From: Nemertoderma westbladi
Taxonomy: Eukaryota > Animalia > Xenacoelomorpha
Direction: 5' to 3'
DNA length: 64,000 nucleotides
Assembly (NCBI GenBank): GCA_032718475.1
Contig: JAUCBJ010006701.1
Location: 67,698-131,697, forward strand
A program made the translations under genes and the position numbers. Positions 39,001 through 64,000 of the stretch are shown in pieces. Position 1 is the stretch's first letter, and each line of letters begins with the position of its first letter. Under the pieces are notes generated by a model. It was not told where the DNA came from and ran no database searches. It worked only from the letters and a program-made list of their open reading frames with translations.

Positions 39001-40367
39001 TCAAAGTAGTGATAGCGTTCTTTATCTCGTCAGCCAGTTTCAATAAGTCTACGGGTTTAGTAATAGCCCCTCCCTTACAGAGTTCCTCTATCACTGACCT
39101 GGCCATGCTGACTGTACCTCCGTAGATCGAAGTTAAACGATCGTACGCTAGTTCGAAAGCGTCCGGTACACCAACGAAGGTCTCCGCCAAATGTTTAGGT
39201 TCTCCTGACAACGTTTGAAGCAGGTAATTAAACTTCTCCCGTGATGTAAAGGCGCACACGGCGATCTGAGATTCGATATAGTCTACGAAAGTGTGCCAGT
39301 GTTTTGAACTACCGGAAAACTTCGGTGGTTGTTGTACCGGCAATCCCTGTCTGGCTGCGAATTTCGCTATCTCCTCGGCAACGTTCAGAGTTTCGCGTCC
39401 TTGGTTGGTAATCTGGTTGATATCCCTTCTTGGCGCTTTTCCCTGATACGATGTGTGTTTTGAAGGTACCGGTCTTTGTGGTTCCTTCGGGTGTCTATTG
39501 TGTTCGAATTCAGTGTTCCTCGAACTATCGGTTTGAACTTCCTCCAGACGTTCCTCAATCTGAGCCAACTTGTTAACAACTGGTCGCAGGATGTCGGCGA
39601 ACTGTTGTGTACTGATTGCGTCCGTTGGTTGTAACGCCTTCTGTGTTGGTGTATTCTGTGGAGGATTGTCTACAAAGGAGTTGTCTGAACGCTCGCGTTT
39701 ATATTCATCGGCCGCCCCTGTTCTAAATACCTCGCGTTTCGGGTAATCCGATTCGCTCGAAGTACTACTATCATCTGGATATGGTGGTCGACGTGTTCGC
39801 GTCCGTTGCGTCGTCCGAATTCTAACGTTTCGTTTCGGAACATCGTCCACTGATCTCCGTTGTTCGGTAGGCTCACAAGTCTTCCTCGAAGTCGTAGATT
39901 GCGATGTAAATTGGTTGAACGGTCGCGTATCCACTGGTCTCCGTTGTTCGGTAGGCTCACAAGTCTTCCTCGAAGTCGTAGATTGCGATGTAAACTGAAC
40001 CGGTGGGCGAATGACAGCATTTGAATCAACTGGCCTTGTAGGTCGAAACGTCATTGGGTAAGCGTAGTGTGTAACGGGTTTAGGTGTCGACGGTGGACTC
40101 ACCTGTTTAGTCGTCAGTAGTGCAGGTCCGGTCAATAAACTACTACGATCTGTAATCGGTGGGTTACTTACCTTGACTTTCAAAATAGGCGACGACGTTG
40201 CTCTTGGCGGTGTAAACTTGTCCGGAATAACAAACCTGTGTTCCGTCACACCATGGATAGGAGAAATATCACTACTACCCGCAATCGAAACAGGTTTCTT
40301 AGTCATAATTGGTGCAAACATAGGAGTTACTTGTGGGAATCGTTGACACAAGTCTTTTACTAATTGT
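33083..40367 (-). CDS. gag-pol: C gag-pol, major C-terminal part (gag core, protease, RT, RNase H, integrase)
   Basis: CWRCTRHGHVRKDC, ILDSAS, FYVDD, LHCFSDAS, HLHLKH..CIIC, GIDCFGP/SDQGTNF/WERL. The first ~42 aa of the ORF-track call are A2 LTR sequence. Confidence 0.93.
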
Positions 40368-40905
40368 TGTGACGGGCTCCAGGAGGGATCCCGATTTATC
40401 CGATGTGGTAATTTAGTCCACGCGTCCCCGCCGTGTATAAGGGTGAAATAAAGTGACTGAGTTCTGAAGTTCGGTGTATAATAATAATAGGGCATAGGAT
40501 ATAGATATAGATAATGTGTACAAGGCGGGATACGGTAACTAAAGTCCCGTGATCCCCTAACTAAACTAATTGGCTGTACCCTACGCTAGCACTGCTGCAC
40601 TGAGATAACTGCATCACTGATTAATAGGTTATTGGTTATATTGCACGGTGGCCTTACTGCTACTCAATCGATGCCGTTCCCCCCTCTGATTGGTTAATAC
40701 CCTTGTTGGCGCCCCGTGGAGTATTCCCGTTCACTCCACCTGTTCTCTCTGGGTTAGGGGTTTGGCCCCTGACCCTCTGTTGTGTGCTTCCTTCCCACTC
40801 TTATTGGGAAGGCACGAGTTGGTTAATTGCCCAATCTCGTGGCTCCCAATATTGCTTATCGGCTAATAACTTTATGGGGTGTTGGCGGGATTGAATAAGC
40901 TAACA
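40368..40905 (-). repeat. 3' LTR of A2
   Basis: TGTGACGGG...GCTAACA, homologous to 54144-54691. Confidence 0.95.
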
Positions 40906-40943
40906 CTCCCCCCCATGCTATCTTCCCGGTAAGAAGATAGCAT
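40906..40943 (-). promoter_or_regulatory. Polypurine tract of A2 preceded by a perfect 11-bp hairpin
   Basis: Minus strand ...GGGGGGGAG|TGTTAGC; inverted repeat ATGCTATCTTC (40915-40925) / GAAGATAGCAT (40933-40943). Confidence 0.8.
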
Positions 40944-41609
40944 CAACCAAAAAAAGTGCGCTACAATCCCGCTGGATCCCGATCTAGTATCGGGTGTGGG
41001 GTGGAATTCTTTTCTCTTGGAGCCGGCTTTCCAGGCCGCCCCCTATGGGTATGATAACGCTACCCTGTGTGCCTGGCGTCTCATGTCGGGCCGATCGCGC
41101 TCACCTCTTCACACGACTTTTGTTTCCCCAACACTTTCGCCCTATCTCACCTTCACTCTCACCCTAACTCTCTCACATTCGGACCTCCTCGTCCCTTACT
41201 CAGCCTCTTATTCCCCCCCCCCACACTGGAATTGCATCGGCACTCTCTCCGCACTCCGCACTATTATTCCGTCCCTCAACCTCACATCGACTGTCTCTTT
41301 CCTTCTGACGAATCTCCCCCCCCTCTCGTGCCGTCGCACTCAAGAAGTGTGAAATTGTCTGGCGTCTCGTCCATAGTGCCATAGTCAGTTATCCCCCAGT
41401 CCCACTAGCTAGTTGAGAAAGGTTGTATGACTATAGTACTTACTCCGATCGTGTATTTTACTGCTAATTACTACGTATGTACATACGAATTGCACTTATA
41501 TGGTTATTTGCATTAATTAAATTTATACTTAATAGTTCGTACGTTACATGCGGCGCCTTCCAGGCGCACCACGTCCCAGTCTCAGCCTCATTCCCTCGCC
41601 TCCGGGAAC

Positions 41610-44153
41610 TTATCTGTACCTCCTCACGTCCTCCTCCCTGGCCCGTTTCTTGGTTATCACCGCTCCTCTGGCATCATCCGCTTTCTGCTTCCGGACCTTT
41701 GCCGCCACTTCCTTGCTGATCCCGGTCGTCGGCTCCTTGGGCGCTGGTGTTATTAAAGCCCGATACCGCTTCGCCGGTGGCCCCTCAGAATGGCCTGGTT
41801 GTTTCCCTCGTGTGGCGTCCCATAGGATCATCTTCATTGCCTTTGGTACGTGTTCCGCCAAGAAATCCCTAAACTCCCTCCGGTTCTCTGGTGTCCACCT
41901 GTCCAGGTACCGTTGCGTGTTCATAACTCCGGCGAACGATGCCGCCGTAGCTACCTCTTGATAGGTAAACGGTAACCTTCGCTTTATGATTTCCATGTGG
42001 GTCTCCTGGTTTATGAGGAAGAAACCCCACTTGAACTCTTGGGCCTTCATGCGCTGGCGCGTCATGGCCCCGACGTCGGCCCACTCCTCGAACCTCGTGA
42101 ACTTCTCCTCGTCGCTCATCCAGTCGCACTCGCGCCCGTAGTGTCCCCGAAAGTGGCACTTTGGACATCGGTTATGCAACCGTGGACACGCCCCCATCCT
42201 GTGACTTGGTTCTCTACAATAGAGACAAAAGGTTCCCCGTTGGAACCGGTATAGGCAGCTGCTTTCCTGATGGGTCTGCCTCCCACAGTAGTCGCAGCCG
42301 AGTACCAATGTCTCGCGTCCCACCTCGTCCTTCGTCCCAAGCGATCTCCGCGGTCTATGGAGTCGCTGGTAGGCAAACTTCTCCACGTTGCTCTCCCTGT
42401 TTACGTCGATCTCTCCGCCCCTCTCGGGCATCGTCTCCCCGAATACTATCCGTGGTGCCGTCCCCGGTTGCTCGCCCAACCTGATGGTGCTCCCCGCGAA
42501 ATCCATCGCCGGCCCCTCGTGCACCCAGGTCCGCTTGCCGGATCTGTTCCAGAAGGCCCTCGCCCCACTGGCCGTCACCACCCTTCCGCCAACCCAGTCC
42601 GTGTCCGAGTGGCCTATCCTTTCGATGGGCGGCATCTCTCCGAACTCGTCGTCGTCGTCCTCCTCTTCTGGTAGTGTCTCCAATCCCGGTATCCCGATGG
42701 ATCCACTATGTCCCTTCCCGCCTTGGCTCTCGCCCGTAGCTCTCCATCCCTCTAGCTCCCTTAACTTCCTTGGCGGTTGGTCGCCCTCGGCGCCCGCTGG
42801 TATGGGCATCGCGTGCAACCCCGACGTCGACTGTTTCGGCGATCCCACCGTCCATCCCAATTCTCGCCCTAGAGACTCCCCCGAACTCCCCGACGAAGTC
42901 CAATGAAGTTCGTCTAGGCCCGCCTGTTCCTCGAAGCCGTAACTCTGTGCCCTGGCCTCCTCTTCCCTCTCCTCTGCTTCTATCCTCTCCCGTCTAGCGA
43001 CTTCTTCCAGTCGCTTTGCTTCCCGTCTATCCATCTCTAGCTGCTCCCATCTCTGATACGGTGTATCCGTCTCCCCATCTACCAGATGTCGGCTGTTGTA
43101 GTACACCGACTCGCCCTTCAGCCCCGGGTGGTCTACCAGACCGTCAAAGGCCGTCTTAAAGGCTCTCCTGTAGCTTAGGGGTGATCCCGATAACAGAAAT
43201 GCCCCTGGTTCCCTCTCGATAACTACGGTCATGAATAAGTTAAGTAAACTTATCATCATCCAGTCCTCCTGCAGGATATATCGCTTCTGATATACCTTTA
43301 TCGCTCCTCTGCGAAACTGATATACCTCCTGCTTTCCCGGTCTCGCTCCCCACTTCAGCGAGTTCGCTAGTTCTGCTCCGTATTCTTCCCTAAACTTCCC
43401 CCAATCCATCGGTTTGTGGCATACGAGCCCCAATAATTGGCCCATCGCCACCGCCCCGCATTGGCCTGTGTTCTCGACCACCCCCAATCCATCCGGTGCC
43501 GTCATAGCCATAAAGACTTTCTGCATGTCCAGGAGGTTGGTGGCGTCCGGACCGATGATCCTCTCCGCATCCTCGCGAATCGCCGATCCCACTTTCGTCG
43601 TCGACTTCTCTCTTACTAAGACTTGTACCGCTTTCGGCAGTCGGTCTAATTTCGGCCCGTCCTTCTTCCCATACGTCCCTAGATCGAATAAGAAGATGTC
43701 CCCATTCGGCGCGGCCAAATGTAGGAGTATGGTCCTGGCCGACCCTGCCGTTCCTCGCCTTGAACCCGCTTCGTCTTCCACGGTTCCCTCGTCATCTAGG
43801 ATCATATATCCTCCTCTGTTGACGGACTCTATGAATCTTTTCCAGTCCTTCCTCGGCGATTCCCTCGGGTACTTCGGAATCCCGAACTTCGCTTCGTCTC
43901 CTTTCACCACGTAGTGGAAGTGTTGGAAGATCGCGTTGTCCAGCGACGGCGTCCCGTAGGTCCCGACCAACCGCTGTTCGTGCGCCTCCCGGAAGTGATC
44001 CTGCAGCGCTCGTGCCGCGTGACCCCTTTCCAACCTCTCGTAGTATCCTCTCGTCTTCTCCTCCGGGTGTCTTTCGGTGAAATCCACCAATATTTCTTTT
44101 CCTCCTGACTCCGCCTTTCTCTTCCTGATCAGCTTACTCGCCATTCCGAACAC
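41610..44153 (-). CDS. A2 extra ORF (847 aa, intact): WRN/Mut-7/RNase D-like 3'-5' exonuclease + 3 CCHC zinc knuckles
   Basis: MILDDEG (ExoI), ILLHLAAPNGDIFLFDL, LPKAVQVLV..TKVGSAIREDA (ExoII), LLDMQ, RYILQED (ExoIII); CDYCGRQTHQESSC, CLYCREPSHRMGAC, CPKCHFRGHYGREC. Confidence 0.85.
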   Translation of the reverse strand: MFGMASKLIRKRKAESGGKEILVDFTERHPEEKTRGYYERLERGHAARALQDHFREAHEQRLVGTYGTPSLDNAIFQHFHYVVKGDEAKFGIPKYPRESPRKDWKRFIESVNRGGYMILDDEGTVEDEAGSRRGTAGSARTILLHLAAPNGDIFLFDLGTYGKKDGPKLDRLPKAVQVLVREKSTTKVGSAIREDAERIIGPDATNLLDMQKVFMAMTAPDGLGVVENTGQCGAVAMGQLLGLVCHKPMDWGKFREEYGAELANSLKWGARPGKQEVYQFRRGAIKVYQKRYILQEDWMMISLLNLFMTVVIEREPGAFLLSGSPLSYRRAFKTAFDGLVDHPGLKGESVYYNSRHLVDGETDTPYQRWEQLEMDRREAKRLEEVARRERIEAEEREEEARAQSYGFEEQAGLDELHWTSSGSSGESLGRELGWTVGSPKQSTSGLHAMPIPAGAEGDQPPRKLRELEGWRATGESQGGKGHSGSIGIPGLETLPEEEDDDDEFGEMPPIERIGHSDTDWVGGRVVTASGARAFWNRSGKRTWVHEGPAMDFAGSTIRLGEQPGTAPRIVFGETMPERGGEIDVNRESNVEKFAYQRLHRPRRSLGTKDEVGRETLVLGCDYCGRQTHQESSCLYRFQRGTFCLYCREPSHRMGACPRLHNRCPKCHFRGHYGRECDWMSDEEKFTRFEEWADVGAMTRQRMKAQEFKWGFFLINQETHMEIIKRRLPFTYQEVATAASFAGVMNTQRYLDRWTPENRREFRDFLAEHVPKAMKMILWDATRGKQPGHSEGPPAKRYRALITPAPKEPTTGISKEVAAKVRKQKADDARGAVITKKRAREEDVRRYR

Positions 44154-44656
44154 TACACTCGCTCACCTGTAGGGTGGTGCCTTACCAAGGCGCAATACAG
44201 ATGAGTGATGTATTAAGATGTTTCGTACAGTTCGATAATGGCCTACTTTTCTACTTAACTGCGCCTTTCAAGCTTAATTTAATCTAATTAATTTCGGAGC
44301 TAGTAAATCAGCCTAATTTACAATTTCCGTCCGTTACTTTTATTATGTTCTAGAACGACTTTCTTTGTGTTACCACTATTTTCCGATTTTAGCCCTATTC
44401 TATTTATTTGTTTATTTTGCTTTGATTCTACTGTCCTACTACTTACTACTGCCTATGGATTTATTCTATTCTCTCTCTGATCCATATTCTGGCCTACTCA
44501 GTGGGCCTATGCAGTACAGCAGTATGCGTCGTGTGGCCACACGATTTATCCAGCTGCACTCATATGCCCCCCTCTCGCTACTAACTCTACTTACTGCTAA
44601 CTAATATCTATATCCTATTTACCCCTTTTACCTCTTACTCTCTCTCTCTAACTAAT

Positions 44657-45515
44657 GGTACTACGTACCCTCTAACTCTAACTCTAACTAGGTACTACGT
44701 ACCTACCAACTCTCTAACTATCGGTACTACGTACCCTCTAACTCTAACTCTAACCAGCGGTACTACGTACCCTCTAACTCTAACTCTAACTAGCGGTACT
44801 ACGTACCTACTAACTCTCTAACTAACTCTAGGTACTACGTACCTACTAACTCTCTAACTAACTCTAGGTACTACGTACCTACTAACTCTCTAACTAACTC
44901 TAGGTACTACGTACCTACTAACTCTCTAACTAACTCTAGGTACTACGTACCTACTAACTCTCTAACTCTAGGTACTACGTACCTACTAACTCTCTAACTA
45001 ACTCTAGGTACCACGTACCTAGTAACTCTCTAACTCTAGGTACTACGTACCTACTAACTCTCTAACTCTAGGTACTACGTACCTACTAACTCTCTAACTA
45101 ACTCTAGGTACTACGTAACTACTAACTCTCTAACTCTAGGTACTACGTACCTACTAACTCTCTAACTAACTCTAGGTACTACGTACCTACTAACTCTCTA
45201 ACTCTAGGTACTACGTACCTACTAACTCCCTAACTCTAGGTACTACGTACCTACTAACTCTCTAACTCTAACTAGGTACTACGTACCTACTAACTAACTA
45301 ACTCTAGGTACTACGTACCTACTAACTAACTAACTCTAGGTGCTACGTACCTACTAACTCTCTAACTCTAACTAGGTACTACGTACCTATTAACTAACTA
45401 ACTAACTAGGTACTACGTACCTCTTAGCTAATTTCTGCCTACTAACTCTCTAACTAACTCTAGGTACTACGTACCTACTAACTAAGTAACTAACTCTAGG
45501 TACTACGTACCTACT
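44657..45515. repeat. Array of ~25 units (mostly 32-36 bp) with the hairpin TAGGTAC-TAC-GTACCTA, between pol and the extra ORF
   Basis: Directly visible; linkers are variants of CTAACTCT. Confidence 0.92.
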
Positions 45516-45632
45516 ATGTACTATTATTTTTATTTTATTTTTATTTTTATTTGTGTGGGAAGGGCGTCTCGCCCTCAATCCCACCCCCCTCAGTCCAAAA
45601 CTTGGACGACTAAACTTCACTCTAACTCCGCT

Positions 45633-48600
45633 TTAAGGTGCCCCTTCTAGAAGACAGCATTTACCTACCGCTCTCCTGTAGGTTTTTCTGTCCTTCGCAC
45701 CTATCTTTCCACCTATCCGCACTTCTACCGATCGGACTCTTCCGTCCTCGTCGGAGTAGGTGCCTACAACTCTCGCCAACCGCCACTGGTTGTTGATGAT
45801 AGTATCATCCGTGACGATTACGAGATCTCCCTCTCTTAACTCCCTGTTCGGCTTCCTCCACTTGCTCCGCTTATGGAGTGTGGGTAGGTATTCCTCTACC
45901 CACCTCCTCCAGTATTCTGCGCTAATTGCTTTAGCTACTTTCCAACTTTGGCGGGAGTGTATATCATCTGGGTCTACACCCCGCATATCGATGGTCGCTG
46001 GCCTTTCCATCAGGAAATGGCTAGGTGTTAGCACGTCTAATGACTCAGGGTCATCATTCTCTGGATATAGCGGTCTGCTATTAATGATCCCCTCGCACTT
46101 CGCAAGTACTGTCCGTAAGACGTCTTCAGTGACCATGTGGGTGTTCATCAGCTTCGTCATTAGACGTTTTGAACTGCCCACCAGTCTCTCGACGCATCCT
46201 AGTGTATGTGGTGCATACGGCGTCCTTCTCTCCCACTTCACTTGTCGTCTTCTCATGGCCGCCCTGACTTCTTCTCCCTCCAAGATGTCTAAGGCCTCTG
46301 CCATCTCACTCTCTGCGCCCACAAAGTTGGTGCCGTTGTCGCTATATATCACTGCGATCGTCCCACCTTTGCGGTCCCTAAACCTTTCTAAGGCGTTAAT
46401 GAATGCTGATGCGGTTGCATCTTGGGCGAGTTCTATCCCTACCGCCCGCGTATTGTTGCATACGAAGATAATACCGTAGCGTTTCTCCGTGTGTCGCATC
46501 ACCTTGATCTTTATCGGCCCGAACATGTCCACACCGCAATGCGTAAATGGCGGGTCGTGCTGTCTTACCCTACTCGCCGGTAGTGGCGCCATCTCCTGTA
46601 CGGCTCGCTCCTTCTTCGCTCGTCGGCAGGTCTGGCACTGCCCCACTACCGCTTTCACCTTCTTCCTTAGTTGTTTGACCCAATAGGTCCTCCTTATCTC
46701 TGTGAGGGTTCGGTTGGTGCCCCCATGCAGTATCGATTTGTGGGAGTCCCATATGATCTGGTGGACTATAGGCGATCCTGTGGGAATGATGATGGGTTTC
46801 GGTGGCACGACTATACTGTTGTTATATCCCACCCTAGAATTCATTACTAGAATCCCATCCTCGTTGAGTTGTGGCGACAGCGTGATCAACTCGCTATCCC
46901 GTCGGAGGTGCTGTTGGTTACCGACGCGTTCCACCTCGTCGCCGTAGTTCTTGCGTTGTTCATAGCGGATCACTGCCTTGGCCGCTCCTTCCAGATCTAT
47001 GGTTATCCTGGTCTTCTTGTCCTTGCCGACTCCCGCAAGGAAATTCCCAAAGGCTCTCCAGTACGCCACTAGTTTCTTGGTCTTATACCAACTGGAACTG
47101 TAGCTGAGGAGTTTATCCGTCGGGTTGTCGCACAGTTCCCTTCCTGGTTGCACGTCCCTAATCTCCCTCACCATCTGGGAGTATATCTCTTCTCCCTCTG
47201 AATCTCCCTCTTCTCCTTCTGATACTGGTTCCGAGCCCGGGTCCACCTTCCTCATCGGCGGCCAGGCCTCTCTATCGCTCAGAAATTGTGGCCCATGTTG
47301 CCACAATACTTCCTTCTTCAGGAAAGTGTGGCGTTCCACGCCCCTCGACAGCAAGTCCGCTGGGTTCTCATCTGTTGGGCAGTAGTGCCACCTTTCCAGT
47401 TCTGTGCTCGCCCTTATTTCGTCCACTCTATTCGCGACGAATATCGGGTATCTCGTCTTTTCGTTGTGTAGCCAACCAAGCACTACCATGGAGTCCGTCC
47501 AGTAGTGTGTCTCCACTATGTTGGGAATTGTATCCACTAGGTAGGCTGTGGCTCTAACTCCTAGTCTCGCAGCTGTCAATTCTAACTTGGGAACAGATGC
47601 TGAATCTGGCGGCGTTGACTTAGCTTTGCTAAAGGCTAGTCTGGGCTTGTGAGGCCCCTCTCGTTGTACTAAATAGAGTGCCGCTCCGTATGCCTCTAAC
47701 GACGCGTCGGAGAACATATGTAGGTCCAGATTCGTCATGTTCCCGTCCGGGAAATACACTCGCGGCATGTTGTATGTTCCCATCCTCTCCAAGTCTCCTG
47801 TCCATTTGCTCCACTGTTTCTTGATGTCTTCTGGTACCTCTACGTCCCACTCATCCTTCAACTTATATACTCTCTTGAGTATCTGTTTCCCCGTGACTAG
47901 TAATGGGGATGCTAGGCCTAAGGGATCGTATATCCTTGCTATATACGATACGTAACCCCTCTTCGTATGGGTGTCTGCGCCCTCCTGGCTCAGCTGATAC
48001 TTCAGTTCGTCTGTTTTTCTATCCCACACGATTCCCAACGCCTTCTGCTGGGATTCCGTTCTCTTAATCGCCATGTCCTGTCCTTTGGCTGTTGTAGGGT
48101 TGTCCATGGTCGATTCTGGTTTCTTGTCTTCTATTTCCCTGATAAATTCTTCTGAACTGGATTGGAATTTGGTCAGGTTGAAGCCGGATCCTTTCAGGAT
48201 GTCGCGAACCTCGCGCCCTGTTTCCAGTATCTCCTCAACCGTATTTCCAGACTCCATGCCGTCGTCTACGTAGAAACCGCGTCTGATCATATCGACGGCC
48301 CTACTGCTGTATCTATCTTCCTTCCCCTTTACCGTGTCTCTCACTGCCATAGTCGTCGTAAATGAGGACGACTTGGCCCCCATATTTTGTACTACCATCT
48401 TATATGCCGGTATTATAGGCGGTTCTTCTTCGCCGTTATACCATAAGAAGCGTTGACTGTCGCTATCTTCCTCTGTTACTCGGACTTGGTTGAACATGCC
48501 TTCTATGTCACACGTGAAGGCGTGTTTCCCATTCCTAAATCTAAGTAGTACTTCTATGCCCGAATTGTATATGTTTGGGCCCTCTAGTAGGTAATCGTTT

Positions 48601-51600
48601 AAGCACTTTCCGTCGGTCTTTGCCGATGCATCGACTACCATCCTAAGTTTACCTTTCTTTGGGTCTAAAGCTACGTGGAGTGGCAGGTAGTATGTCCTGT
48701 CCGTGTTCGGTTCGTCGACCGGTAACTCCACGGCCCATCCTTTCTCGACGTACTTCTTAATGGTTTTGTGAATGTACTCGTTCTTCTCGGGGCTCCGTTG
48801 TAGTGTTTGTTTCAGCTTGCGGAGTCTCGTGAGTACCATCCCTCTATTATCGGGTAGCGGTATCTTCGGTAGTTTCCATACCATTCCTATTGTATACCGC
48901 CCCTCATCACACGTCATCGATTCCTCCACACTTTGTAGAGCCTGCTTGTCTTCTACCGAGGTCCCGACCCCGGTCTCTTTCAGTCCCTCGAAGTCCTGTC
49001 TGAGCAGTCTTTTAAGCTGCTCCTCTGCTCCCTCGTCACCCATTTCCTGCATTGTTCCCGCGAACATGCATCCTGATGTCTCCGACATCCTGAATGGTAT
49101 CTTGCTCTTAATTGGACCACTCAGCGTCCACCCGAATGGCGTTAATATGGCCACCGGGTCGCTCTGCTTGTCTTCGCCGAAGACCGTCTGCATTCTCTCG
49201 TGGGCCGTTGGGCAGTCCATGCCTACTATGATGGATACCTTCCTAACGTCCACGTCTGGGATTGAGAAGTCAATGTTGTCCAGGAATTTGTATTGCTCGA
49301 CCTCGATGTTGGTTGGCCGCCTGGCATTGATGTTAATTGACTCTATTACTTGGATGGGGTCGATGGTTGCCCCATAATCGCATCCTGGTGCCACTGCTGC
49401 AATTGCGCACCGTCCTGTCCTCATCTCTAGGATCTCGTCTTTGCTAGAGATGGTTGTCACCGCCATCCTGCTTGGCCTCGTTCTCAACCCTATTTCTTCG
49501 GCTACCCATTCCTCAACTAATGTGAAGGCAGCTCCACTATCAACCAGCATTAGTGTTGTTACTGATCGATTGCCTTCCCCGATCACTCGTACTGGTACTA
49601 CTCCAAGTAGCACTGTTCCTCTCTTCTTCGCCCCTACTGTGCTCGTTGCCATCGTCTGGCCTCTCCTTTGGCCAAACTTGACCGGTTTCTCTTGGCATTC
49701 CCTGGCCTTGTGTCCACTCTTCACACATCGCGAGCAGATTTTATTGCTCGACGCGTAATCTATCTGGTCTTGCCTCGGTAGCGCCTGCCAGTACCTGCAG
49801 TTCATGGTTTTATGAAGCGCATTTGCGTGTAACTGGCATTTGCTCTTTGGGTCATAGCCCTCTTTATACAATGCATTGCGTATCGCAGTTATATTCGTAC
49901 CAAAGTCCCTACTATTCTTATTGACTGGGTTTGACCTACTGGACGTACTGGGGTTATGTTTATTCATGTTGTTATTGTTCCCCTGTCCGTCCCTTGATGT
50001 TGTCTTATCTTCGTTTGTCTGTGGACTTGCAGTCCCCTGCGTCGCTGCGTATGGCAATGATTGTCTGAGCCTCGGCAATGCGTTTGATGTATTGTGCTCT
50101 GGTTTGGGCCTGTAATGATCTGTCTTTGGTCCCTTTCCCAGGCTATCTTCACTATAGACTGGGTCCGTTATTAGTTCAGCCTCGTAATTTAAGAAGTTTG
50201 ACATTTCTTCTAAACCTGGTTCCGCACCCTTCTTGTCTCGGGTGGAGAAAGCGATCTTCCTCCATTTGTTGCGCAGCCAGCTCGGTAGTGCCTGCGCTAT
50301 CGTGGTGATGTTATTGGACGCGTTGAGTTCGTATGGCGCGTCTAGCGTCTTCAGCACGATCAGCGCCTTCTCGACTTTGTTAGCAAACGTCTTAATGCTA
50401 ACGGGATTATCCTGTAGGCCACCCGATGTTATGCCTCTCAGCGTTTGCCTGATGATCTTGGCCGGGTGCCCGTATTCCCTATCCAGTGCCCGCCATGCTG
50501 TCGTGAAGCCGCCCTCTATTCCCTGGTATTGCCTCACGATGTCGTATGCTGGGCCTCCCGTGTACACTTGTAGATACTTTAGGCACTCCGCCTGCGTCAA
50601 GTTTTTTGTTAGTATTTCGTTACTATACATTCGCCGAAACTGCAAGTATTCTTCCGGCCTGCTCCCATCGAATTTGAACGGTTCCACGGGTGGTAATTCG
50701 ATCCTCGTTTTCAACGCATCGATCAACGTGGCCATCCCCATTGCCTGCGCTTCTAATGGATTCGACGGATGCTGTATAGTTTCCCCTGTCTGGTGCGGTT
50801 CGTCCGTCCTATTTCTTGATCTTCTCTGACTCGGATATGTCATCGGGGGTAGCGGCCCCCTCCATATGTCTGTATCACACGACCTGTTTTCGTCCAAGGG
50901 TTTCACTGTTCTTGCTACCATCGGGGTATATTGTTGATATTGTGATGGGGGAATGTCACCCTGTCCCCCCCCCCACCGGTATGTCTGGTACTGGGGTTGA
51001 TGTTAATACGTTGGGGCCCATGCACCTATCCGCAATAATTCCCCCCTCCCCTGGGTATATGTTATGTCCCTGCATGCTGTAGTCATACTGCTGTGCTGGT
51101 ACCGGTATAGGCCTATCAGCTTCTGGCCTACTCGCCGGTATGTATTCCGCGACTTCCGGGTTTAATCCCGTTGTCCGCGCTATCCTATCGCCTACATTGC
51201 CTCTCTCAGTATGGCCTACGGTATGTGCAGTAAGACCTACAGTATGCCCTACAGTCTGCATGTGTTGCTCGGGATCGAAGTTTATTCTTCTCGAATAATC
51301 CTCCCCGCGGCTACCGTATTCTCGATCGGTAGGTACATTCCGTCGGAAAGTTTCTCTTCGACCCCCCTCTCTACTGTTCTCTTCTTCGTACCGGTACATC
51401 GCGTACCCCTCTCTCGGCGTGTAATGCGTCTCACCGGATCGCATCCCTCCGGGGCGACGGCAATCTCCCGGAGTCCGACCCCACTGACTCTCCGTTCTCA
51501 TCTCGATTACCGACGGCTCGCTGTCCGTCCTCGCTCTTCTATCGTTTGCGGCGATACTTCTACTACTCTCTTCCTCTCTTCTCCTATCAGTGGAATATTC

Positions 51601-54064
51601 CCGCTCACGAGATCTCTCGTCGACCTCCCGGTTAAACCCCACTGTTCTTCTTTCCTCCTCTGATCGGGCTCGACGCTCCGTCTGCCCTCCCGCGACGTCA
51701 ACCTGTCTTTCTCTGCTCGATCGCACGTCGCTGGGGATACTCGCAATCCCCCTATTACTTTCCGTCGCCGGTTGTTGCGGTTTACCTTGTTCGGCCCTCG
51801 CATTGTCCGCTGACGGCTGTGGGACACTCTCTGCCCCCCCCCCTCTCGCCGCTAACTCTCTGTTGTGGGGCCCTCGTAGCCCCCCCCCACTCGCTACATC
51901 TAACTTCGCTACCTCTCTCCCCGCCATTATATACCTCTCTAGTCGACACATCAACCCTACTACAGTCGGGTCTATTTACCCCCCCTCTCCCTCTGCTATT
52001 GCGTGGCCTTCCAGGCCCTCTACTCCCTGCCTACCAACTACGTGGCCTACCAGGCCCTCTGCTCCTTGTCTACTAACTACGTGGCCTACCAGGCCCTCTT
52101 CCGGCTGGTTATGTAGGCCCGACGTGTTCACATTAATAGCACCCATATTGGAAACGGAATTAATTTGCTCGTTCGAAACAAAATCATTCGTATTATTCTG
52201 CGCGACTACGTTATCTGAATTATTTTGTAAATTCGGGCATGGATCATTATTTAAATTATTTGGATTATTTTGCGTAATCGCGTTATTTAGATTATTTAGT
52301 AAGTTCGAATTTGGGTTATTATTTTGATTATTTAAATTATTTTGCGTAATTACATTAATATTAGAATTATTTTCTACATTAATACTAGGATTGTTCTGAT
52401 TTAAATTTAAATTACTACCACTAGGTAAAGTATTTCCTGCAATAAAGGTTTGATTAGAGTTATCCCATACGGTACTATTAATATCAACAACTTCTACTGT
52501 ACCATCATTATTACCCCCCCCCGCCCGTACGGTCACACCAGTTTTGGGTCTGTCGTGCGGTCCCTGTCAGTGGGGTATTAATAAACGTATCTAGGGCCCC
52601 CGGGTCCTCAAAAATACTCGAGCCGGCCCCGCTTGCAGACGGCGACGCTTGCGCCAGTCGCAGCTCGTGCGCCCGTCTAATCTTATGTTCCGCAAGCACA
52701 CTTTGGCGTCTCTTTATTTTCTCTTGCTCTCGCTCAGCCTCTGCCCTTCTCTTCTCACACTCCTGGGTGTCCCGACTGCCCGACTCTACTATACTCCTAG
52801 CGCTCTCCCTTCGTCTCGCCTCACGCTCTTTGCGTTCCTTTTCCCTTCTCGTCTCATATTCCTTGCGTTCCTTTTCCCTTTTTGCCTCACGTTCCCTGCG
52901 TTCCCCGTCCTCCCTTTCCTCACGCTCTCTGCGTTCCCTTTCCTCCCTTTCCTCACGCTCTCTGCACTCATTTTCCTCTATTTCGTCTCTCTCCCTAAGG
53001 CTTCTCAAAGCTCTTTCGACCCTCTCTCCGGTCTCCTTAATCAATTCCGCTTCCCTCATTAACCGCACTCTCCCCTCCTCTAACCGTTCCTCCATTTCCT
53101 TCTGACCTTGCTCTACCACGTTGAGACGGTATGCGGCACCTATCTCTCTCACCACTCTTCCTTTCGCGGAGGATGTAGCAGACTTATCGGTTGCGACGGA
53201 CCCCCTCCGCCTTCCCGACCTACTAACTTTCCCCCGCTTCCCGGAACTTTCTCCGACCGACGAGGCCGAATCCTCGCGGTTAACCTCGGATTCGCCCCCC
53301 TCAGGTCCCCTCCAACCCACTGGTTTTACTCCCCGGGCATCGACCAAGTATGGCCCTATGTACACTGGCGCTACGCTAGGTTCCATACTCCCACACTCCC
53401 ATAGTTCAAACAGTTCGCCTGCAATTCCCTTTGCTCTCTCCCCGGCTAGTTCTCTCTGCCCAAAACGTATCAGGTAATTTAAGTGTCTGTCCGACTCACC
53501 TAGTCGCTTTCTCAGTCTCACCTCGTCTACCTTCGCCCCTTGCTTCTTGGCGTCGTTTATCAGCTTCCGGGTCGCGTTGTAGGCCCGTCGAAGTCGGTCA
53601 GAAACCCCGACGTCCTCGTCGCCGACCTCTCCTCCGTCCCTCCGGGTCCGACGTCGTACCGGCGGCTCCACCGTCGCCGTTCCGGTGGGCCGCTCGTCGC
53701 CCTCGGCCTGTAGCTGGCCGGCGACATCGGTACCGATCTCTCCTCCGTCTCTTCGCGTCCGGCGTCGCACCGTCGGCCCCACCGTCGCCGTTTCGGTGGG
53801 CCGCTCGTCGCCCTCGGCCGGTAGCTGGCCGGCGACATCGGCGCGCCGTTCTCCGTTCCGTGTCGACTCATCTCCTTCTCCCTCCGTCTCGCTCTCCCTT
53901 TCCCTCTGCTCGACTTCGGGTTCCAGACCCTCCTCGTTCTGGACTTCCGGTTCGCCCGTTATCGATGGCTCCGGCGTCGTGGGCCTGTATCGCTTGGTCG
54001 CGGCCTCGCGGATCGTTAGGTCTTCGTCCGGGGTCCGCGGCGGTGTCTCGCCCGATTCACTCAT
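45633..54064 (-). CDS. gag-pol: A2 gag-pol (pieces 52511-54064, 51976-52536, 50956-51954, 45633-50921; breaks at poly-C runs)
   Basis: 45633-50921 is an uninterrupted gag core-PR-RT-RH-IN frame (LVDSGA, FYVDD, FSDAS, HKSILH..CQTC, GVDMFGP/SDNGTNF/VERL). Upstream breaks coincide with homopolymers at ~52514, ~51980 and ~50965. Confidence 0.92.
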
Positions 54065-54143
54065 CTCGTCTGCTCGGTGGAGTTCGACTAGCTAGCGTGG
54101 GGTTCTTTGAGTTTAACTAGGGCGGCAGCTCGGATTTAGTTAC

Positions 54144-54691
54144 TGTGACGGGATCCAAGAGGGATCCCGATTTATCCGGTTGTGGTAATTTAGTCCACGC
54201 GTCCCCGCCGTGTATAAGGGTGAAATAAAGTGACTGAGTTCTGAAGTTCGGTGTATAATAGGATAGTTCATAGGATATAGATATTGTGAATGTGTACAAG
54301 GCGGGATACGGTAACTAAAGTCCCGTGATCCCCTATCTAAACTAATTGGCTATTATCCTACGCTAGCACTGCTGCACTGAGATGACTGAATCACTGGTAA
54401 TAGTTACTGCCAAGTGGCTATACTGCACGGTTGGCCTTACTTACTACCTCAATCGATGCCGTTGCCCCCCTCTGATTGGTTGTTACCCTTGTTGGCGCCC
54501 CGTGGAGTATTCCCGTTCACTCCACCTGTTCTCTCTGGGTTAGGGGTTTGGCCCCTGACCCTCCGTTGTGTGCTTCCTTCCCATTCTTATTGGGATGGCG
54601 CGAGTTGGTTAATTGCCCAATCTCGCGGCTCCCAATATTGCTTATCGGCTAATAACTTTATGGGGTGTTGGCGGGATTGAATAAGCTAACA
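54144..54691 (-). repeat. 5' LTR of A2
   Basis: Homology to the other A LTRs; adjacent TSD. Confidence 0.95.
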
Positions 54692-54696
54692 ATTGT

Positions 54697-56141: not shown

Positions 56142-58429
56142 TTCGGTAGTTGTAAGTCAAGTAAAGTGAGTGTCAAAGTATCAAACTTACCGTATTTTAT
56201 CTAAACGGTACTAATTACAGTCATATAAAATTAGCCTACCGGCCGATTTTATAGCAGATGGATAAAATTAGCCTAAACGGCCAATTTTACAGCAAATAAA
56301 TGTCACGGAATAAGTATATAATAAAATTAGCCTAGCGGCCAATTTTATAATAAATAAATCGGATAACGATATGCGTTATCAAAAGGTAAATTAAATACAA
56401 TAATTACGGACTAATTCAGCAATGAACAAAGAAATCATACGGAATGCATAAATACTTGAGACAGTGGAACCCACAATAATTTTAACTAATACGGTAATGC
56501 CTAACTTATTTATGCAACTTTTCGAACTCACCCACTCCAATAATTCTCCAGAAAAACAGATTCCCACATACAAACCGGACGTGAACCTTTCCGTTTTCAG
56601 CGTTGCGGACGAAACGCGATTTTCCCAACCAAAGTTGTTGAGTTATCTATCTCCCAAACTTGCTAATCACGGTCTTGCTCCCGTTACAGTCTAGAAATGA
56701 GTTCTGAATCCTGAAAAACAAAAGAGTTAGGTTTTGCTTTTACGAAAATTTTGTACCGGTACAATATGGTATTTAAACCCTTTTAAACACCGGTATTCAA
56801 TTCCAAAAATATTTTACACGCGGTTCAAATCAAATTTTATTTCAAAAAATTAGCACTTAGCTAATCAAATATAAACTTTTACCTCAAAATACAAAATTTT
56901 CAAATAACTTTAGTCCTACCGAACCGTAGTTCAGTAAAACATATTCCTACTATTAGAAGAGATACCGTATTCCTACTAATGCGAAGAGACGGTAACAATA
57001 CCTGCAATATCCTACTGTAAAGTTTGTGAATCAAATCATAAATCCGACCTTCTCACCAAAACAGTAAACTCTAAGTAAGCGAATATATTGCAGTATCGAT
57101 TTCTTATTACCGGTGAGGCAGAAAACAGTTTACGAGCAGACAAACTTCGATAAAACAAAATCCCGCGCAGCGAATCCTAAAATCAGGCTGACTCACTGAC
57201 GGACTAAGAGGCTCGTATACTTTGCCGCGGTGTGATTTATATGGTTGGGCAAAGGGACGCTAGCTAGGTACAGAGGCAGAGATTTGGAGATGTCTAACTA
57301 GCGGGCAAAACACAGTAAGGACGAAAGTTAATTTTATATATTTTGAGGTGTAAATAATTTCTAACGCGCGTGTGTTAATTCTGAACGGTCAAAAGCAGTT
57401 TTGCTCCTTCACATATATAATTACTGGGTACGGTGTGCATTTTACGAATATTCTAATTTTGTAACTTGTAGGTCCAATACTCACGAATGATAAGGTTCCT
57501 TCCCCTCTTGCGTATTTCCAGGACTCAAATTCAGGCATAAGGTTAATGCTACGCCCAGAATTCGGCAATTTTTAATTTACCAGGCCCCTAATACTAAGAA
57601 GAAATGTGTTAGTTTACTACAGTAGGCGTACGGTTACTAATAGCTATCCTGGCTCTTGTCTAGAATTTTAGTCACCTAGGTAGGCTGGGTAACTTCCTAT
57701 TAGGACGTTGGCGGGGACACGGTAGATGTTAGTATATCCCTAATAGCCTCAATTTATTTGCGCCTAGTTGTAAACTGCCCTACCGCCTGAACGGTACAAT
57801 CCCAATTCAGGTGAAACACAACGACCCTCCTAGCCTACAAGTTCTAATGCAATGGACACCGTTGTACTGCAAATAGTCACAGACGCACCTGCACTTAGCA
57901 AGAGTTAGGCGTACAGTTTGCTGCACCCTACCAATGTGTATGCCTTGTACCGGTGTGCCTACGTCCTATCTGCGTACTAGTATCTGCCTGCTCTCCTCCC
58001 CCCGTAGGAATATGAAGGTCTACTGTGGTTTTTTCCTGAATCAAGACAGTACAGTCCCTAAGATGTAATTTTAGGCTCACAGCTTGTCACTACTTCTACC
58101 TTTGATCTTTGGTCTTACGCTTAGGTAGCAAGGCGTCGAACGCTGTCTAACCTTTCAGGCGATGGGCGAATAACTAAGGTGGTATTGCGGGTTGTCTCCT
58201 GTCTACATTCCTTTGATGTTCCCGTTCATTGCTGCGGCCCGATCTCTAGCCGGCCATCCTGTTCCTAAGAGTGTTCACCGTAGTGAATCATGGTGAAAAG
58301 AAAAGCAGATAGCGGTATTTCTGAATTTATTGCAGATAATAATACAAAATGTAATCTGAAAACTAATGACAGAATAAACAAGATTGAGTAACTAATAAGA
58401 TTAGATAGATTGCACTGAGATTGAGAGAT

Positions 58430-58464
58430 TGAGATAACTAATGAACGAAATCGCACCTTTTATA
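58430..58464 (-). promoter_or_regulatory. Putative Pol II core promoter of C (TATAAAA + Inr-like TTAGTT)
   Basis: Minus strand TATAAAA (58464-58458) ~25 nt upstream of TTAGTTATCTCA. The A1 LTR has the same AGTTATCTCA (TCAGTTATCTCA, ~9000-9011). Confidence 0.55.
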
Positions 58465-58670
58465 CCAAATTTGTGCCGCAATCAATCGAGAAATTCTCGA
58501 TTGTTCTATAGGTTCTAACAGGTTTTTAAAGATAACTATTGGTCCAGCGAATATATAACTTGCACGACATTGGTTACAATCTAATAACTACAGTCTCATT
58601 GGTTAATCTAGGTACAGACAAATGCAATTTAATTTGTAGCGGTTAATTTAAATGAGTTGAAATTCTGCAC

Positions 58671-58757
58671 AAAAAATAATTCGCACTTACTAGGATTCGA
58701 ACTCAATACCTACTACACATATAATTTCCAACGCTCTACCGACTGAGCTACTGAACC
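58671..58757 (-). ncRNA. Degenerate tRNA-like Pol III unit inside the C LTR
   Basis: A-box/D-arm TAGCTCAGTCGGTAGAGC, B-box GAGTTCGAATCC, then a T6 run. The acceptor stem does not pair. Confidence 0.6.
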
Positions 58758-58890
58758 ACTTGACTAATAGGCGTACAATAGATATAACAAATACAAATGA
58801 GGACTCAAAGCAATCTTTTACAAAGTTAATTCGAATAAAATAAAAATTTTGAAAATCCACGGCATTTAGAGAATATAATTCTATAGTAAT

Positions 58891-59137: not shown

Positions 59138-59841
59138 AATATAATTAGTGAGAGTGAAATTTATTGTTGTTGTTTGGTGGTGGAGATTTTTTACTGTAAA
59201 ATATATATATTAAATTGGAAGGAGAAGAAATTTATGAATATTTTTTTTTTAAATCAACAACTAGTTGGGGAAATTAACTAACTAACTTCGGTAGAGCGAT
59301 TGCTTGTAACACTCAAGTATGCATAGTATACTCAGAGACAGTAGCTAGCTAGCTAGCTAAGCATCGCAGCTCACGAGTGAGCTACAATAGCGCATCTGTT
59401 ACTTATGAGTGTGTGTGTGTATGCAGCGGGCAACGCTAAGCTTGGTGAGAAAAGTTTAGGGCTATGTACTGGTATTCGTAGTCAAAGTCGAAGCCCACCT
59501 ATCTGTTACTAGCCTGTATACCAGTACATATTATTAAAACATCAGCTATGCATTTCCCTACATTCAGAATAGAACAATGGACAGAGCATATATCGCTAAT
59601 CAGCATGGGAAAGGTTTATGTTCTACATTTTGTTAACTATGTGAATTTTGTAATGTAAACATCTGCGACCCACTACAAAAATATATATAAACTCAATTTT
59701 GTTACCCTACTGTAAATAAAAAAAATAAAATACCGGTATATACTAACTTATATTCATACTTGAAAAAAAAACTAACCTCCAAACTTCAGTTCCGGCGATC
59801 CTTCATTTAATCAATCAATCAACCAACATCCAACATCCAAC

Positions 59842-60192
59842 ATGGCGTTTTCATTTATTGAAAATAGAGATAGCAGCGACTGTTTATTAAAATTTGATCT
59901 TGATGGGGAAGAACTCTATTTTACATCATTAAATGTAATTGAATTATATTTAAAAAATAACAATGGCGAAATTACTATAATGGTTAAGAATAAAACCAGC
60001 GGTGAAGGTCGACAAACTATATTGACAACAAATAAAAACTTTAATTTAAACGTTCGGGTCCAACCAGGAGAAGCTCACCAGATAAGTCTGGATAATTATA
60101 GTAGGGGTGAGCACTGGGAAGAACAAGAAGAAATATCAGTAGCACCTGCTCCGACTCTACTACTTCCAACAGATCCAAGAATACGCCAGTAG
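59842..60192 (+). CDS. Hypothetical 116-aa protein, probably part of the Maverick-like backbone
   Basis: Clean ORF with good start context (CAACATGG) in AT-rich DNA; no motif recognised. Confidence 0.45.
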   Translation: MAFSFIENRDSSDCLLKFDLDGEELYFTSLNVIELYLKNNNGEITIMVKNKTSGEGRQTILTTNKNFNLNVRVQPGEAHQISLDNYSRGEHWEEQEEISVAPAPTLLLPTDPRIRQ

Positions 60193-61196: not shown

Positions 61197-61676
61197 TCAT
61201 TTCATACAGTTATCCTTTGTGTTTAAGTGGTAAGCGCATTTATTATCTACTGTAGTCAATTGATTGTGGAAGGGGCATGGGGTTAAATAGTTGTAATATC
61301 GTTGATATATTCCCAATTTCTCCATCGAATTTGGAGCAAGTACATCAAGTTGGGAAATTAATATTGCCTGCTTCATCAACCCAAATACATATATATTTTT
61401 TTTATATTTTAAATGTCTCTTCATGTACTTTTTAAAGTCATCTTGTGAAATGTCGCCGTAATCCCAAGGTAAATGTGAAGTCATGTCCCGTAAATTGTTT
61501 ACATGGGCTTTATCTAATGCTGATAACTTAATATTAGGAGGTCCTTTAATTAAAAACGTCTTTATATTAGTTTTGGTGTAATTAGAATCGAATATAGCAA
61601 ATTCTTTAAATACTACCGGATATTCCTTATTGTCTATCGTATAATATTGAAAATCAACAAAAATAATATTATCCAT
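61197..61676 (-). CDS. Small DEDD/RNase H-fold nuclease-like protein of the kind seen in Mavericks/Polintons
   Basis: IFVDFQ...VFKEFAI...HLPWDYGDI...IYVFG..K...CPFH...CA pattern. Confidence 0.6.
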   Translation of the reverse strand: MDNIIFVDFQYYTIDNKEYPVVFKEFAIFDSNYTKTNIKTFLIKGPPNIKLSALDKAHVNNLRDMTSHLPWDYGDISQDDFKKYMKRHLKYKKNIYVFGLMKQAILISQLDVLAPNSMEKLGIYQRYYNYLTPCPFHNQLTTVDNKCAYHLNTKDNCMK

Positions 61677-61769
61677 TTTATCTGATAATATATTTAGATA
61701 AACAAAAGTTAAATGATTAATTACAACGCTTGTTGGTTTATTTTATAATAATTAACAAGCCATTTATAT

Positions 61770-63932
61770 ATTAATGTGCCAATCATTAATGTTTGTGTCC
61801 TTCATTAATGTTTGTGTCCCTCATTAATGTTTGTGTCCCTCAGTAATGTTTGTGTCCCTCATTAATGTTTGTGTCCCTCATTAATGTTTGTGTCCCTCAT
61901 TAATGTGCCAATCATTAATGTTTGTGTCCTTCATTAATGTTTGTGTCCCTCATTAATGTTTGTGTCCCTCATTAATGTTTGTGTCCCTCATTAATGTTTG
62001 TGTACCTCATTAATGTTTGTGTCCCTCATTAATGTTTGTGTCCCTCATTAATGTTGTGTCCCTCATTAATGTTTGTGTCCCTCATTAATGTTTGTGTCCC
62101 TCATTAATGTTTGTGTCCCTCATTCATGTTGTGTCCCTCATTAATGTTTGTGTCCCTCATTAATGTGCCAATCATTAATATTTGTGTCCTTCATTAATGT
62201 TTGTGTCCCTCATTAATGTTTGTGTCCCTCATTAATGTTTGTGTCCCTCATTAATGTTTGTGTCCCTCATTAATGTGCCAATCATTAATGTTTCTGTCCC
62301 TCATTAATGTTTGTGTCCCTCATTAATGTTTGTGTCCCTCATTAATGTTGTGTCCCTCATTAATGTTTGTGTCCCCCATTAATGTGCCAATCATTAATGT
62401 TTGTGTCCTTCATTAATGTTTGTGTCCCTCATTAATGTTTGTGTCCCTCATTAATGTTTGTGTCCTTCATTAATGTTTGTGTCCCTCATTAATGTGCCAA
62501 TCATTAATGTTTGTGTCCCTCATTAATGTTTGTGTCCCTCATTAATGTTTGTGTCCTTCATTAATGTTTGTGTCCCTCATTAAAGTTTGTGTCCCTCATT
62601 AATGTTTGTGTCCCTCATTAATGTTTGTGTCCTTCATTAATGTTTGTGTCCCTCATTAATGTTTGTGTCCTTCATTAATGTTTGTGTCCCTCATTAATGT
62701 TGTGTCCTTCATTAATGTTTGTGTCCCTCATTAATGTTTGTGTCCCTCATTAATGTTGTGTCCTTCATTAATGTTTGTGTCCCTCATTAATGTGCCAATC
62801 ATTAATGTTTGTGTCCCCCATTAATGTTTGTGTCCCTCATTAATGTTTGTGTCCCTCATTAATGTTTGTGTCCCTCATTAATGTTTGTGTCCCTCATTAA
62901 TGTTTGTGTCCCTCATTAATGTTGTGTCCTTCATTAATGTTTGTGTCCTTCATTAATGTTTGTGTCCCTCATTAATGTTTGTGTCCCTTATTAATGTTTG
63001 TGTCCTTCATTAATGTTTGTGTCCCTCATTAATGTGCCAATCATTAATGTTTGTGTCCTTCATTAATGTTTGTGTCCCTCATTAATGTTTGTGTCCCTCA
63101 TTAATGTTTGTGTCCCTCATTAATGTTTGTGTCCTTCATTAATGTTTGTGTCCCTCATTAATGTTTGTGTCCTTCATTAATGTTTGTGTCCCTCATTAAT
63201 GTTGTGTCCCTCATTAATGTTTGTGTCCCTCATTAATGTTTGTGTCCTTCATTAATGTTTGTGTCCCTCATTAATGTTTGTGTCCCTCATTAATGTGCCA
63301 ATCATTAATGTTTGTGTCCTTCATTAATGTTTGTGTCCCTCATTAATGTTTGTGTCCCTCATTAATGTTTGTGTCCCTCATTAATGTTGTGTCCTTCATT
63401 AATGTTTGTGTCCCTCATTAATGTTTGTGTCCCTCATTAATGTTTGTGTCCCTCATTAATGTTTGTGTCCTTCATTAATGTTTGTGTCCCTCATTAATGT
63501 TTGTGTCCTTCATTAATGTTTGTGTCCCTCACTAATGTTTGTGTCCTTCATTAATGTTTGTGTCCCTCATTAATGTTTGTGTCCTTCATTAATGTTTGTG
63601 TCCCTCATTAATGTTTGTGTCCCTCATTAATGTTTGTGTCCTTCATTAATGTTTGTGTCCCTCATTAATGTGCCAATCATTAATGTTTGTGTCCCCCATT
63701 AATGTTTGTGTCCCTCATTAATGTTTGTGTCCCTCATTAATGTTTGTGTCCCTCATTAATGTTTGTGTCCCTCATTATTGTTTGTGTCCCTCATTAATGT
63801 TGTGTCCTTCATTAATGTTTGTGTCCCTCATTAATGTTGTGTCCTTCATTAATGTTTGTGTCCCTCATTAATGTGCCAATCATTAATGTTTGTGTCCTTC
63901 ATTAATGTTTGTGTCCCTCATTAATGTTGTGT
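61770..63932. repeat. Minisatellite, 19-bp unit TCATTAATGTTTGTGTCCC with an interspersed 15-bp variant TCATTAATGTGCCAA
   Basis: Directly visible; more than 100 units. Confidence 0.97.
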
Positions 63933-64000
63933 GATGAATTATTTCACTATAAGGTAGCATTTGTAGTTTAACTTTAGCGTAAAAACTTTGAAAATCCGAC

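Follow-up and report, generated by a model that had tools for sequence, protein, structure and literature searches.

Nested BEL/Pao elements in the window

The 64,000 nucleotides (nt) of Nemertoderma westbladi DNA considered here, referred to below as the window (contig JAUCBJ010006701.1), hold a nest of minus-strand BEL/Pao retrotransposons that have long terminal repeats (LTRs) and belong to three related families, A, B and C, in which the primer binding site (PBS) following the LTR is complementary to a short segment of the element's own LTR, the anti-PBS, and in which pol is followed by a third open reading frame (ORF3) that likely encodes an exonuclease. The Pfam domains PF03564, PF05380, PF17921 and PF18701 are matched in each of elements A2, B and C (PF05380 with E 6e-40, 3e-42 and 2e-39, respectively), the closest proteins are of BEL/Pao type at 34-38% identity, and LTRs, a polypurine tract and a target duplication are present. 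Element A2 (14.3 kb) is inserted within gag of B, and A1 is a second copy of family A. The main features are as follows.

40368-54691, minus strand: element A2, with an LTR pair and a 5-bp target duplication
40363-40367 and 54692-54696: A2 target-site duplication, 5 bp
54144-54691, minus strand: A2 5' LTR, 548 nt, TG...CA
40368-40905, minus strand: A2 3' LTR, 538 nt
40906-40914, minus strand: A2 polypurine tract
54135-54143, minus strand: A2 PBS GTAACTAAA, directly after the LTR, without a TGG start
54311-54319, minus strand: A2 anti-PBS TTTAGTTAC, 5' LTR copy, candidate primer 3' end at 54311
40535-40543, minus strand: A2 anti-PBS, 3' LTR copy
50959-54064, minus strand: A2 gag, N-terminal part, in three pieces (52514-54064, 51979-52566 and 50959-51975)
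45633-51002, minus strand: A2 gag-pol frame, 1789 codons, with DUF1759, protease, reverse transcriptase (RT; YVDD), ribonuclease H (RNase H; Peptidase_A17 model), integrase and DUF5641
8775-9305, minus strand: A1 5' LTR, with anti-PBS 8938-8947 (10 nt) and PBS 8765-8774
27948-58885, minus strand: element B
56951-58885, minus strand: B 5' LTR, 1935 nt, TA...TA, with anti-PBS 58004-58014 and PBS 56940-56950
27948-28279, minus strand: B 3' LTR remnant, 99.7% identical to the 5' LTR end, without anti-PBS
9697-27514, minus strand: element C
25306-27514, minus strand: C 5' LTR, 2209 nt, TG...CA, with anti-PBS 26374-26384 and PBS 25295-25305 (one mismatch)
25197 and 25088 (starts), minus strand: fully matching PBS repeats of C
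9697-10471, minus strand: C 3' LTR remnant, 99.6% identical, without anti-PBS

The upstream edge of B was set by the target duplication at one of five candidate sites, picked for flanking open frames in register, and that of C at the sole one of three candidates followed by TG, while the downstream LTR edges of B and C are the points at which both LTR copies diverge. In public DNA runs, family A is abundant in the same organism, its LTR edges are supported and loose ends of other family-A copies fall at 54691 and 54142-54144. A2 had been described in the initial annotation as a nearly intact element with all parts; the parts are indeed all there, but gag is in three pieces, interrupted by one stop and, at G runs, by two changes of frame that may be sequencing errors, and the two LTRs are only 92% identical to each other; A2 as sequenced is not a working copy. 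A1 is cut off before the integrase and hence shows no ORF3.

Complementarity between the primer binding site and the LTR

In A, B and C alike the PBS begins with GTA at the first base past the LTR, and in none of them does it start with TGG. The complement TTTAGTTAC of the A2 PBS occurs at only three sites on the minus strand of the 64 kb, ending at 54311 and 40535 in A2 and at 8938 in A1. The match is 9 nt long in A2 and 10 nt in A1; in B it is 11 of 11, ending at 58004; in C, where it ends at 26374, it is 10 of 11 at the true PBS and complete at two tandem PBS copies 108 and 217 nt downstream. The probability that a match of this kind arises at any place in the LTR by chance is 0.003 for A2, 0.0013 for A1, 0.0006 for B and 0.0014 for the C repeat, and equally good matches at other leader offsets number 0/288 in A2, 0/288 in A1, 1/288 in B and 135/288 in C. 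In all three families the duplex stops at the edge of U5, and the following base is mismatched. The complementarity holds for A and B and probably for C, in agreement with the initial annotation, which had proposed in all three families a non-tRNA PBS with an anti-PBS in the element's own LTR, ending in ...TAC exactly at the U5 edge; in A2 this end lies at 54311 and 40535, and self-priming from such an LTR stretch has good support in A and B and weaker support in C.

Apart from GTA/TAC, the letters of the PBS differ between A, B and C, and because each nevertheless matches its own LTR, self-priming is likely. Searches of the window gave no transfer RNA (tRNA) or Rfam match and no tRNA-like primer matching the PBS. 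The A1 copy differs from A2 by one extra A in the PBS and one extra T in the anti-PBS, a homopolymer change that could also serve an internal look-alike of the PBS; such look-alikes lie inside the LTRs of B (9 nt long, 26 nt inside) and A (longer, ~50 nt inside). Among the copies, 25 rows of substitutions fall at 23 places within 54145-54298, and PBS and anti-PBS have none; this carries little weight, as both sites lie 21-33 nt from the ends of the stretch, a known change at 54336 was missed and the count covers substitutions, apart from 42 indel rows.

An exonuclease-like reading frame downstream of pol

ORF3 lies after pol in A2, B and C; it is open only in A2, broken once in B, and both broken and truncated in C.

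41610-44144, minus strand: A2 ORF3, open, 844 amino acids (aa), with a DEDDy-like domain and three CCHC knuckles
43794-43796 (D), 43788-43790 (E), 43569-43571 (D), 43278-43280 (Y) and 43266-43268 (E), minus strand: catalytic-type residues of A2 ORF3
42126-42296, minus strand: the three CCHC knuckles of A2 ORF3
29045-32420, minus strand: B ORF3, one frame break, with exonuclease-like domain and three CCHC knuckles
10469-12757, minus strand: C ORF3, with one stop and without its C-terminus, sharing 42% identity with B ORF3
44640-45516: tandem array of ~34-nt units between A2 pol and ORF3

The knuckles, of the form C-x2-C-x4/5-H-x4-C, are present in A and B and have been lost in C, and the ORF3 products of A and B are remote homologues (E 3e-6 for the exonuclease-like part and 2e-6 for the knuckles). 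Pfam searches of ORF3 gave no exonuclease match and just a weak zinc knuckle in B. A profile of the three families, aligned by hhalign with PF01612, for which an alignment of 69 bacterial proteins served as reference (39 of 40 short-frame loci and 30 of 33 longer ones), reached a probability of 76% (E 2.2e-5, 158 columns) when B headed the alignment and 54% (E 1.3e-4) when A did; in 40 column shuffles the probability was at most 1.2% and the best score 18.9, as against 39.1 for the real profile. Sub-group profiles alone were not significant. When 645 six-frame segments were searched by hidden Markov model with bacterial exonucleases, one profile put the ORF3 frames of A and B in the top two places, but their E values were 0.77 and 0.98. 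In the Atlas, the A domain scored 0.95 with unnamed clusters and 0.94 with PF01612 clusters, and the B domain 0.88-0.89 with PF01612 clusters, the top one of which is mostly from Rotifera, a lead only.

As for the catalytic motifs, A and B align at the D-x-E of ExoI and at the D of ExoII, and in C an H stands in place of the first catalytic D; ExoIII, placed by hand alignment, reads Y-x3-E as compared with the Y-x3-D form of the family, and hhalign put this motif elsewhere. Structure models of ORF3 were of low confidence (pLDDT 32 and 37), with no Foldseek match at E 0.001, and no relatives of ORF3 came out of the protein-set searches, the plasmid matches being only 1 and 3 records at E 4-6, nothing useful. 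A match to a repeat-rich protein over 19 residues was rejected, and one to Ssu72 (PDB sequence search, E 0.018) was taken as chance. On these comparisons ORF3 is likely a DEDDy/RNase D-like 3'-5' exonuclease. It had been expected in all three families together with zinc knuckles: the reading frame is there in A, B and C, always accompanied by the non-tRNA PBS, whereas the knuckles stand in A2 and B only and the ORF3 copies of B and C are broken. Separately, the N-terminal 450 aa of ORF3 are kept in B and C (11216-12757; 31130-32420) and absent in A, and have no Pfam or PHROG match.

Phylogenetic position

In a tree of RT-RNase H with 40 sequences, A, B and C lie on one branch (SH-aLRT 94); this is a quick tree, for which 37 of 120 homologues were used and in which A sits on a long branch. 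Identity over RT-RNase H is 37% between A and B and 34-37% across the families. Since the three form one branch, the co-occurrence of exonuclease and self-priming counts as one event. Relatives were found as six loci of 1.1-5.0 kb in metagenome contigs, too short to reach an LTR, and no relatives with LTR context were found in viral contigs.

Promoter, poly(A) motifs and predicted RNA folds

By motif placement, the anti-PBS is predicted to lie downstream of a plausible promoter. In family A, a CCAAT box and a TATA-like box are followed ~30 nt later by an initiator (Inr), which would put the transcription start site (TSS) ~70 nt before the anti-PBS, and in B and C a TATAAA stands 450 and 590 nt upstream of it, in line with the suggestion of the initial annotation that the anti-PBS lies downstream of the TSS. 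An AATAAA occurs 246 nt downstream of the anti-PBS in B and 248 nt downstream in C, none downstream in A, and B has a second one 317 nt upstream of the anti-PBS and 130 nt past the TATA box.

54384-54389, minus strand: predicted initiator (TCAGT) of family A, from motifs, ~70 nt upstream of the anti-PBS
54199-54210, minus strand: A2 LTR segment whose predicted pairing partner is the run of 12 nt after the anti-PBS (second helix), the same in A1 and A2, P 0.05-0.06

The annotation had further placed a copy of the anti-PBS near the 3' end of the genomic RNA, and this fits the 3' LTR of A2 but finds no counterpart in the 3' LTR remnants of B and C, which retain only the final 332-335 nt and 775 nt, respectively.

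In the predicted 5' fold of A2, nine PBS/anti-PBS pairs form at probability 0.89-0.98, and in that of B the pairs stand mostly at 0.44 over 1.2 kb. For A and B the prediction includes the second helix, in which the bases following the anti-PBS pair with the end of the LTR. A further, longer complementarity in A2 links the part of the LTR that lies upstream of the anti-PBS with the leader and the beginning of gag (0/500 shuffles reached it); such a long LTR-leader duplex was not significant in A1, B and C (P 0.09, 0.26 and 0.44-0.67), and a cross-family LTR-leader pair gave a similarly low score.

Origin of the primer

It is likely that the three families prime reverse transcription with their own RNA. 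As to how the 3'-OH is made, a cut by RNase H, comparable to that of Tf1, comes a little short of an even chance, with the exonuclease as an accessory that is not needed for the priming step; we rank this above a primer made by the exonuclease, which is somewhat less likely. The 5' part of the transcript would fold onto the PBS and the RNase H of the element would cut after ...UAC. Because transcription would start upstream of the anti-PBS (by ~70 nt in A and by ~420-560 nt in the two other families), the fragment used as primer would be capped and longer than the 11-mer of Tf1; minus strong-stop DNA would be copied from the 3' piece of the cut RNA. The knuckle-bearing exonuclease would then act on other RNA ends, for instance in polishing or counter-silencing. 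The RNase H motifs read as intact in A2, B and C.

Several observations weigh against self-priming by such a cut. The true PBS of C has one mismatch, with a chance of ~0.09, and its predicted pairing with the anti-PBS reaches only 0.01; in the A1 fold the anti-PBS pairs with the internal look-alike and not with the PBS (0.03); the second helix is borderline (P 0.062, 0.047 and 0.13) and absent in C (P 0.85); and one contig carries a PBS variant at +5, its LTR being unreadable. The predicted TSS lies well upstream of the primer match, a geometry not described for Tf1. Finally, ORF3 with its acidic catalytic-type residues has been kept in A and B despite the 37% identity of their RT-RNase H, which suggests a core role and fits a primer made by the exonuclease.

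The latter mechanism was the proposal of the initial annotation, and we regard it as less likely than the RNase H cut, although the best placed of the alternatives. The RNA that anneals to the PBS would carry the anti-PBS towards its 3' end; in the form proposed by the annotation it would be the genomic RNA, and in a variant acting in trans an LTR transcript kept short by early polyadenylation. ORF3 would trim this RNA to ...UAC-3'OH. ORF3 resembles the RNase D/WRN family, which trims structured RNA ends, and bears in A and B three knuckles of RNA-binding type; both traits occur in all three families, the duplex stops at the U5 edge before a mismatched base, the predicted TSS is far from the anti-PBS, and B and C have their AATAAA motifs 246 and 248 nt downstream of it. 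Against this, the shared occurrence is a single phylogenetic event, and the core duplex is just 9-11 bp long and, for the true PBS, worth -10 to -14 kcal/mol. Moreover, the tail to be trimmed is predicted to be paired, in A through three more bases facing the LTR end and then a 7-bp GC helix, and in B through 8-12 bp, 4 nt from the junction, so that a single-strand exonuclease would stall early; the predicted structure thus leans slightly against tail trimming. The upstream AATAAA of B could also end the RNA before the anti-PBS, and A is without an AATAAA downstream of it. In the cis form, once strand transfer has taken place the primer would serve as template, and it would be gone by the time the plus strand is copied.

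Improbable in our judgement is a third explanation, in which the pairing is an RNA switch for packaging, dimerisation, translation or poly(A) control and a host RNA primes instead. The longer LTR-leader complementarity of A2 favours it, as do the PBS look-alikes inside the A and B LTRs, repeated downstream in C; yet three distinct PBSs each match their own LTR, end at the U5 edge and never start with TGG, and the long flanking duplex is not significant in A1, B and C. That the 3'-OH comes from a host activity, be it a nuclease, slicing guided by small RNAs or an end left by transcription or splicing, is more improbable still: GTA/TAC is kept while the remaining duplex differs, as a sequence-specific cut might need, but the anti-PBS is contiguous in the DNA, so that an intron is not called for, and it is followed by differing bases (CGT, GGG, AAC), so that a shared splice donor is absent.

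Other features of the window

Several further observations concern the three families. In A2, the differences between the two LTRs are concentrated around the predicted promoter, in two patches such as conversion or template switching might leave, and some contigs from the public DNA runs share only the final 70 nt of the A LTR and then diverge (54142-54213), pointing to further related families. The LTR of B has the termini TA...TA in place of TG...CA. Element B interrupts an AT-rich open frame, with 114 codons on one side and 83 on the other, in register, and the stretch 28280-28912, after its polypurine tract, has no match to its 5' LTR (local score 38, shuffles up to 44). Within the B LTR, 58292-58590 on the minus strand, as also 1-87 on the plus strand, resembles a small LTR (TG start, TATA, AATAAA and CA end, then TGA/TGG), which may simply be the B promoter region. 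Also inside the B 5' LTR, 58693-58750 (minus strand) holds the sole A-box and B-box pair of the window, in a degenerate sequence resembling a tRNA or a short interspersed nuclear element and followed by a T run; it has no Rfam or default ARAGORN match and no pairing with the PBS from base +1. An inverted copy of part of the B LTR, 94% identical, lies at 80-1393 on the plus strand, carries the anti-PBS with one change and abuts the truncated A1. In C, the unit formed by the U5 end and the PBS (24977-25310) is repeated three times with a 109-nt period, and pol contains, on the plus strand, an RT fragment of the long interspersed nuclear element type (16773-18793) set between direct repeats of 47 nt, longer than is usual in a target duplication. 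The flanking DNA comprises AT-rich reading frames of an unmatched family (59776-60189; 61200-61742) and a 19-nt tandem array of ~116 copies (61770-63933).

Comparison with known systems

Tf1 cuts an 11-base primer from the 5' end of its RNA with RNase H alone (PMC7175516), self-priming has been predicted for the plant Tcn1 and TAR lineages (PMC6317226), and the Tf1 RNA is described as a "pretzel", a structure of three duplexes (bioRxiv 2022.12.06.519325). The families described here resemble Tf1/Tf2/Tj1 and the Tf1/sushi group in that a tRNA PBS is absent and the PBS after the LTR matches 9-11 bases of the own LTR (PMC7175516, PMC4600332, PMC6317226), and resemble Tf1 in the prediction of flanking helices, here a borderline second helix in A and B and none in C (bioRxiv 2022.12.06.519325). 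In contrast to Tf1/sushi elements, A, B and C have Pao-type domains and no chromodomain match, and are neither Ty3/gypsy chromoviruses nor Ty1/copia elements. They further differ from Tf1 in that the own-LTR match is predicted 70-560 nt past the TSS and not at it, in the 167 to ~1070 nt between this match and the PBS, and in the exonuclease-like reading frame.

The family Belpaoviridae, as defined by the international virus taxonomy committee (ICTV), has an 18-nt PBS that pairs with the 3' end of tRNA-Arg or tRNA-Gly, a genome of 4.2-10 kb and LTRs of 0.2-1.2 kb (PMC8742986). A, B and C share with it the order Gag-PR-RT-RH-IN, Pao-type domains, LTRs and a polypurine tract, and depart from it in the lack of a tRNA-type PBS (all begin with GTA), in their 14-17 kb, in LTRs of up to 2.2 kb and in an ORF3 that is not env. 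They are thus BEL/Pao by their proteins, differ from the ICTV description in PBS and size, and are Tf1-like while standing outside the Tf1 group. A survey of BEL/Pao elements (PMC3118150) has, in its accessible text, no occurrence of the terms primer, tRNA or exonuclease.

DEDDy reading frames are known from the Juno and Vesta LTR elements of bdelloid rotifers and from the Athena (non-LTR) elements (PMC5408684), and a role in 3'-end processing of element RNA has been proposed for them (PMC5408684, PMC6431247). As in Juno, Vesta, Athena and Terminon, an RNase D-like reading frame here takes the position of env; different from the rotifer elements are the BEL/Pao affiliation, the fusion to three CCHC knuckles and the last acidic residue, which by hand alignment is E. 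Each trait, self-priming and a DEDDy reading frame, stands alone in print, the rotifer paper never using the term PBS in its accessible text. The literature covered, which excluded subscription papers, supplements and Repbase/GyDB entries, gave no report of self-priming in BEL/Pao and none of an exonuclease making a retrotransposon primer. An RNase D-like domain is reportedly present in some Cer BEL elements of C. elegans, and Cer7 is said to encode its own tRNA-like primer, which, if right, would be an earlier pairing of both traits; in contrast to Cer7 as so described, no tRNA-like primer matches the PBS here. A DEDDy-type domain and CCHC knuckles also come together in Rrp6 with Air1/Air2; here they are in one polypeptide and no HRDC or other Rrp6 domain is matched, so the relation is one of analogy and not of membership.

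Significance

BEL/Pao elements are described as tRNA-primed (PMC8742986); with a self-priming lineage among them, the mechanism known from Tf1 would reach a third superfamily of LTR elements, in another geometry. Judged from its sequences, the present BEL/Pao lineage likely primes itself and in addition encodes a likely exonuclease bearing zinc knuckles. If the exonuclease does not make the primer, this would be one more case in which a single lineage combines two known traits. If it does, this would be a third LTR priming route besides tRNA and the RNase H cut, in which the host tRNA is replaced by a self-made primer and the DEDDy reading frames of retroelements gain a function. As ORF3 of A2, open and full-length, adjoins a defined candidate substrate, a duplex of 9-11 bp with a tail, the function of a retroelement DEDDy reading frame becomes testable in vitro.

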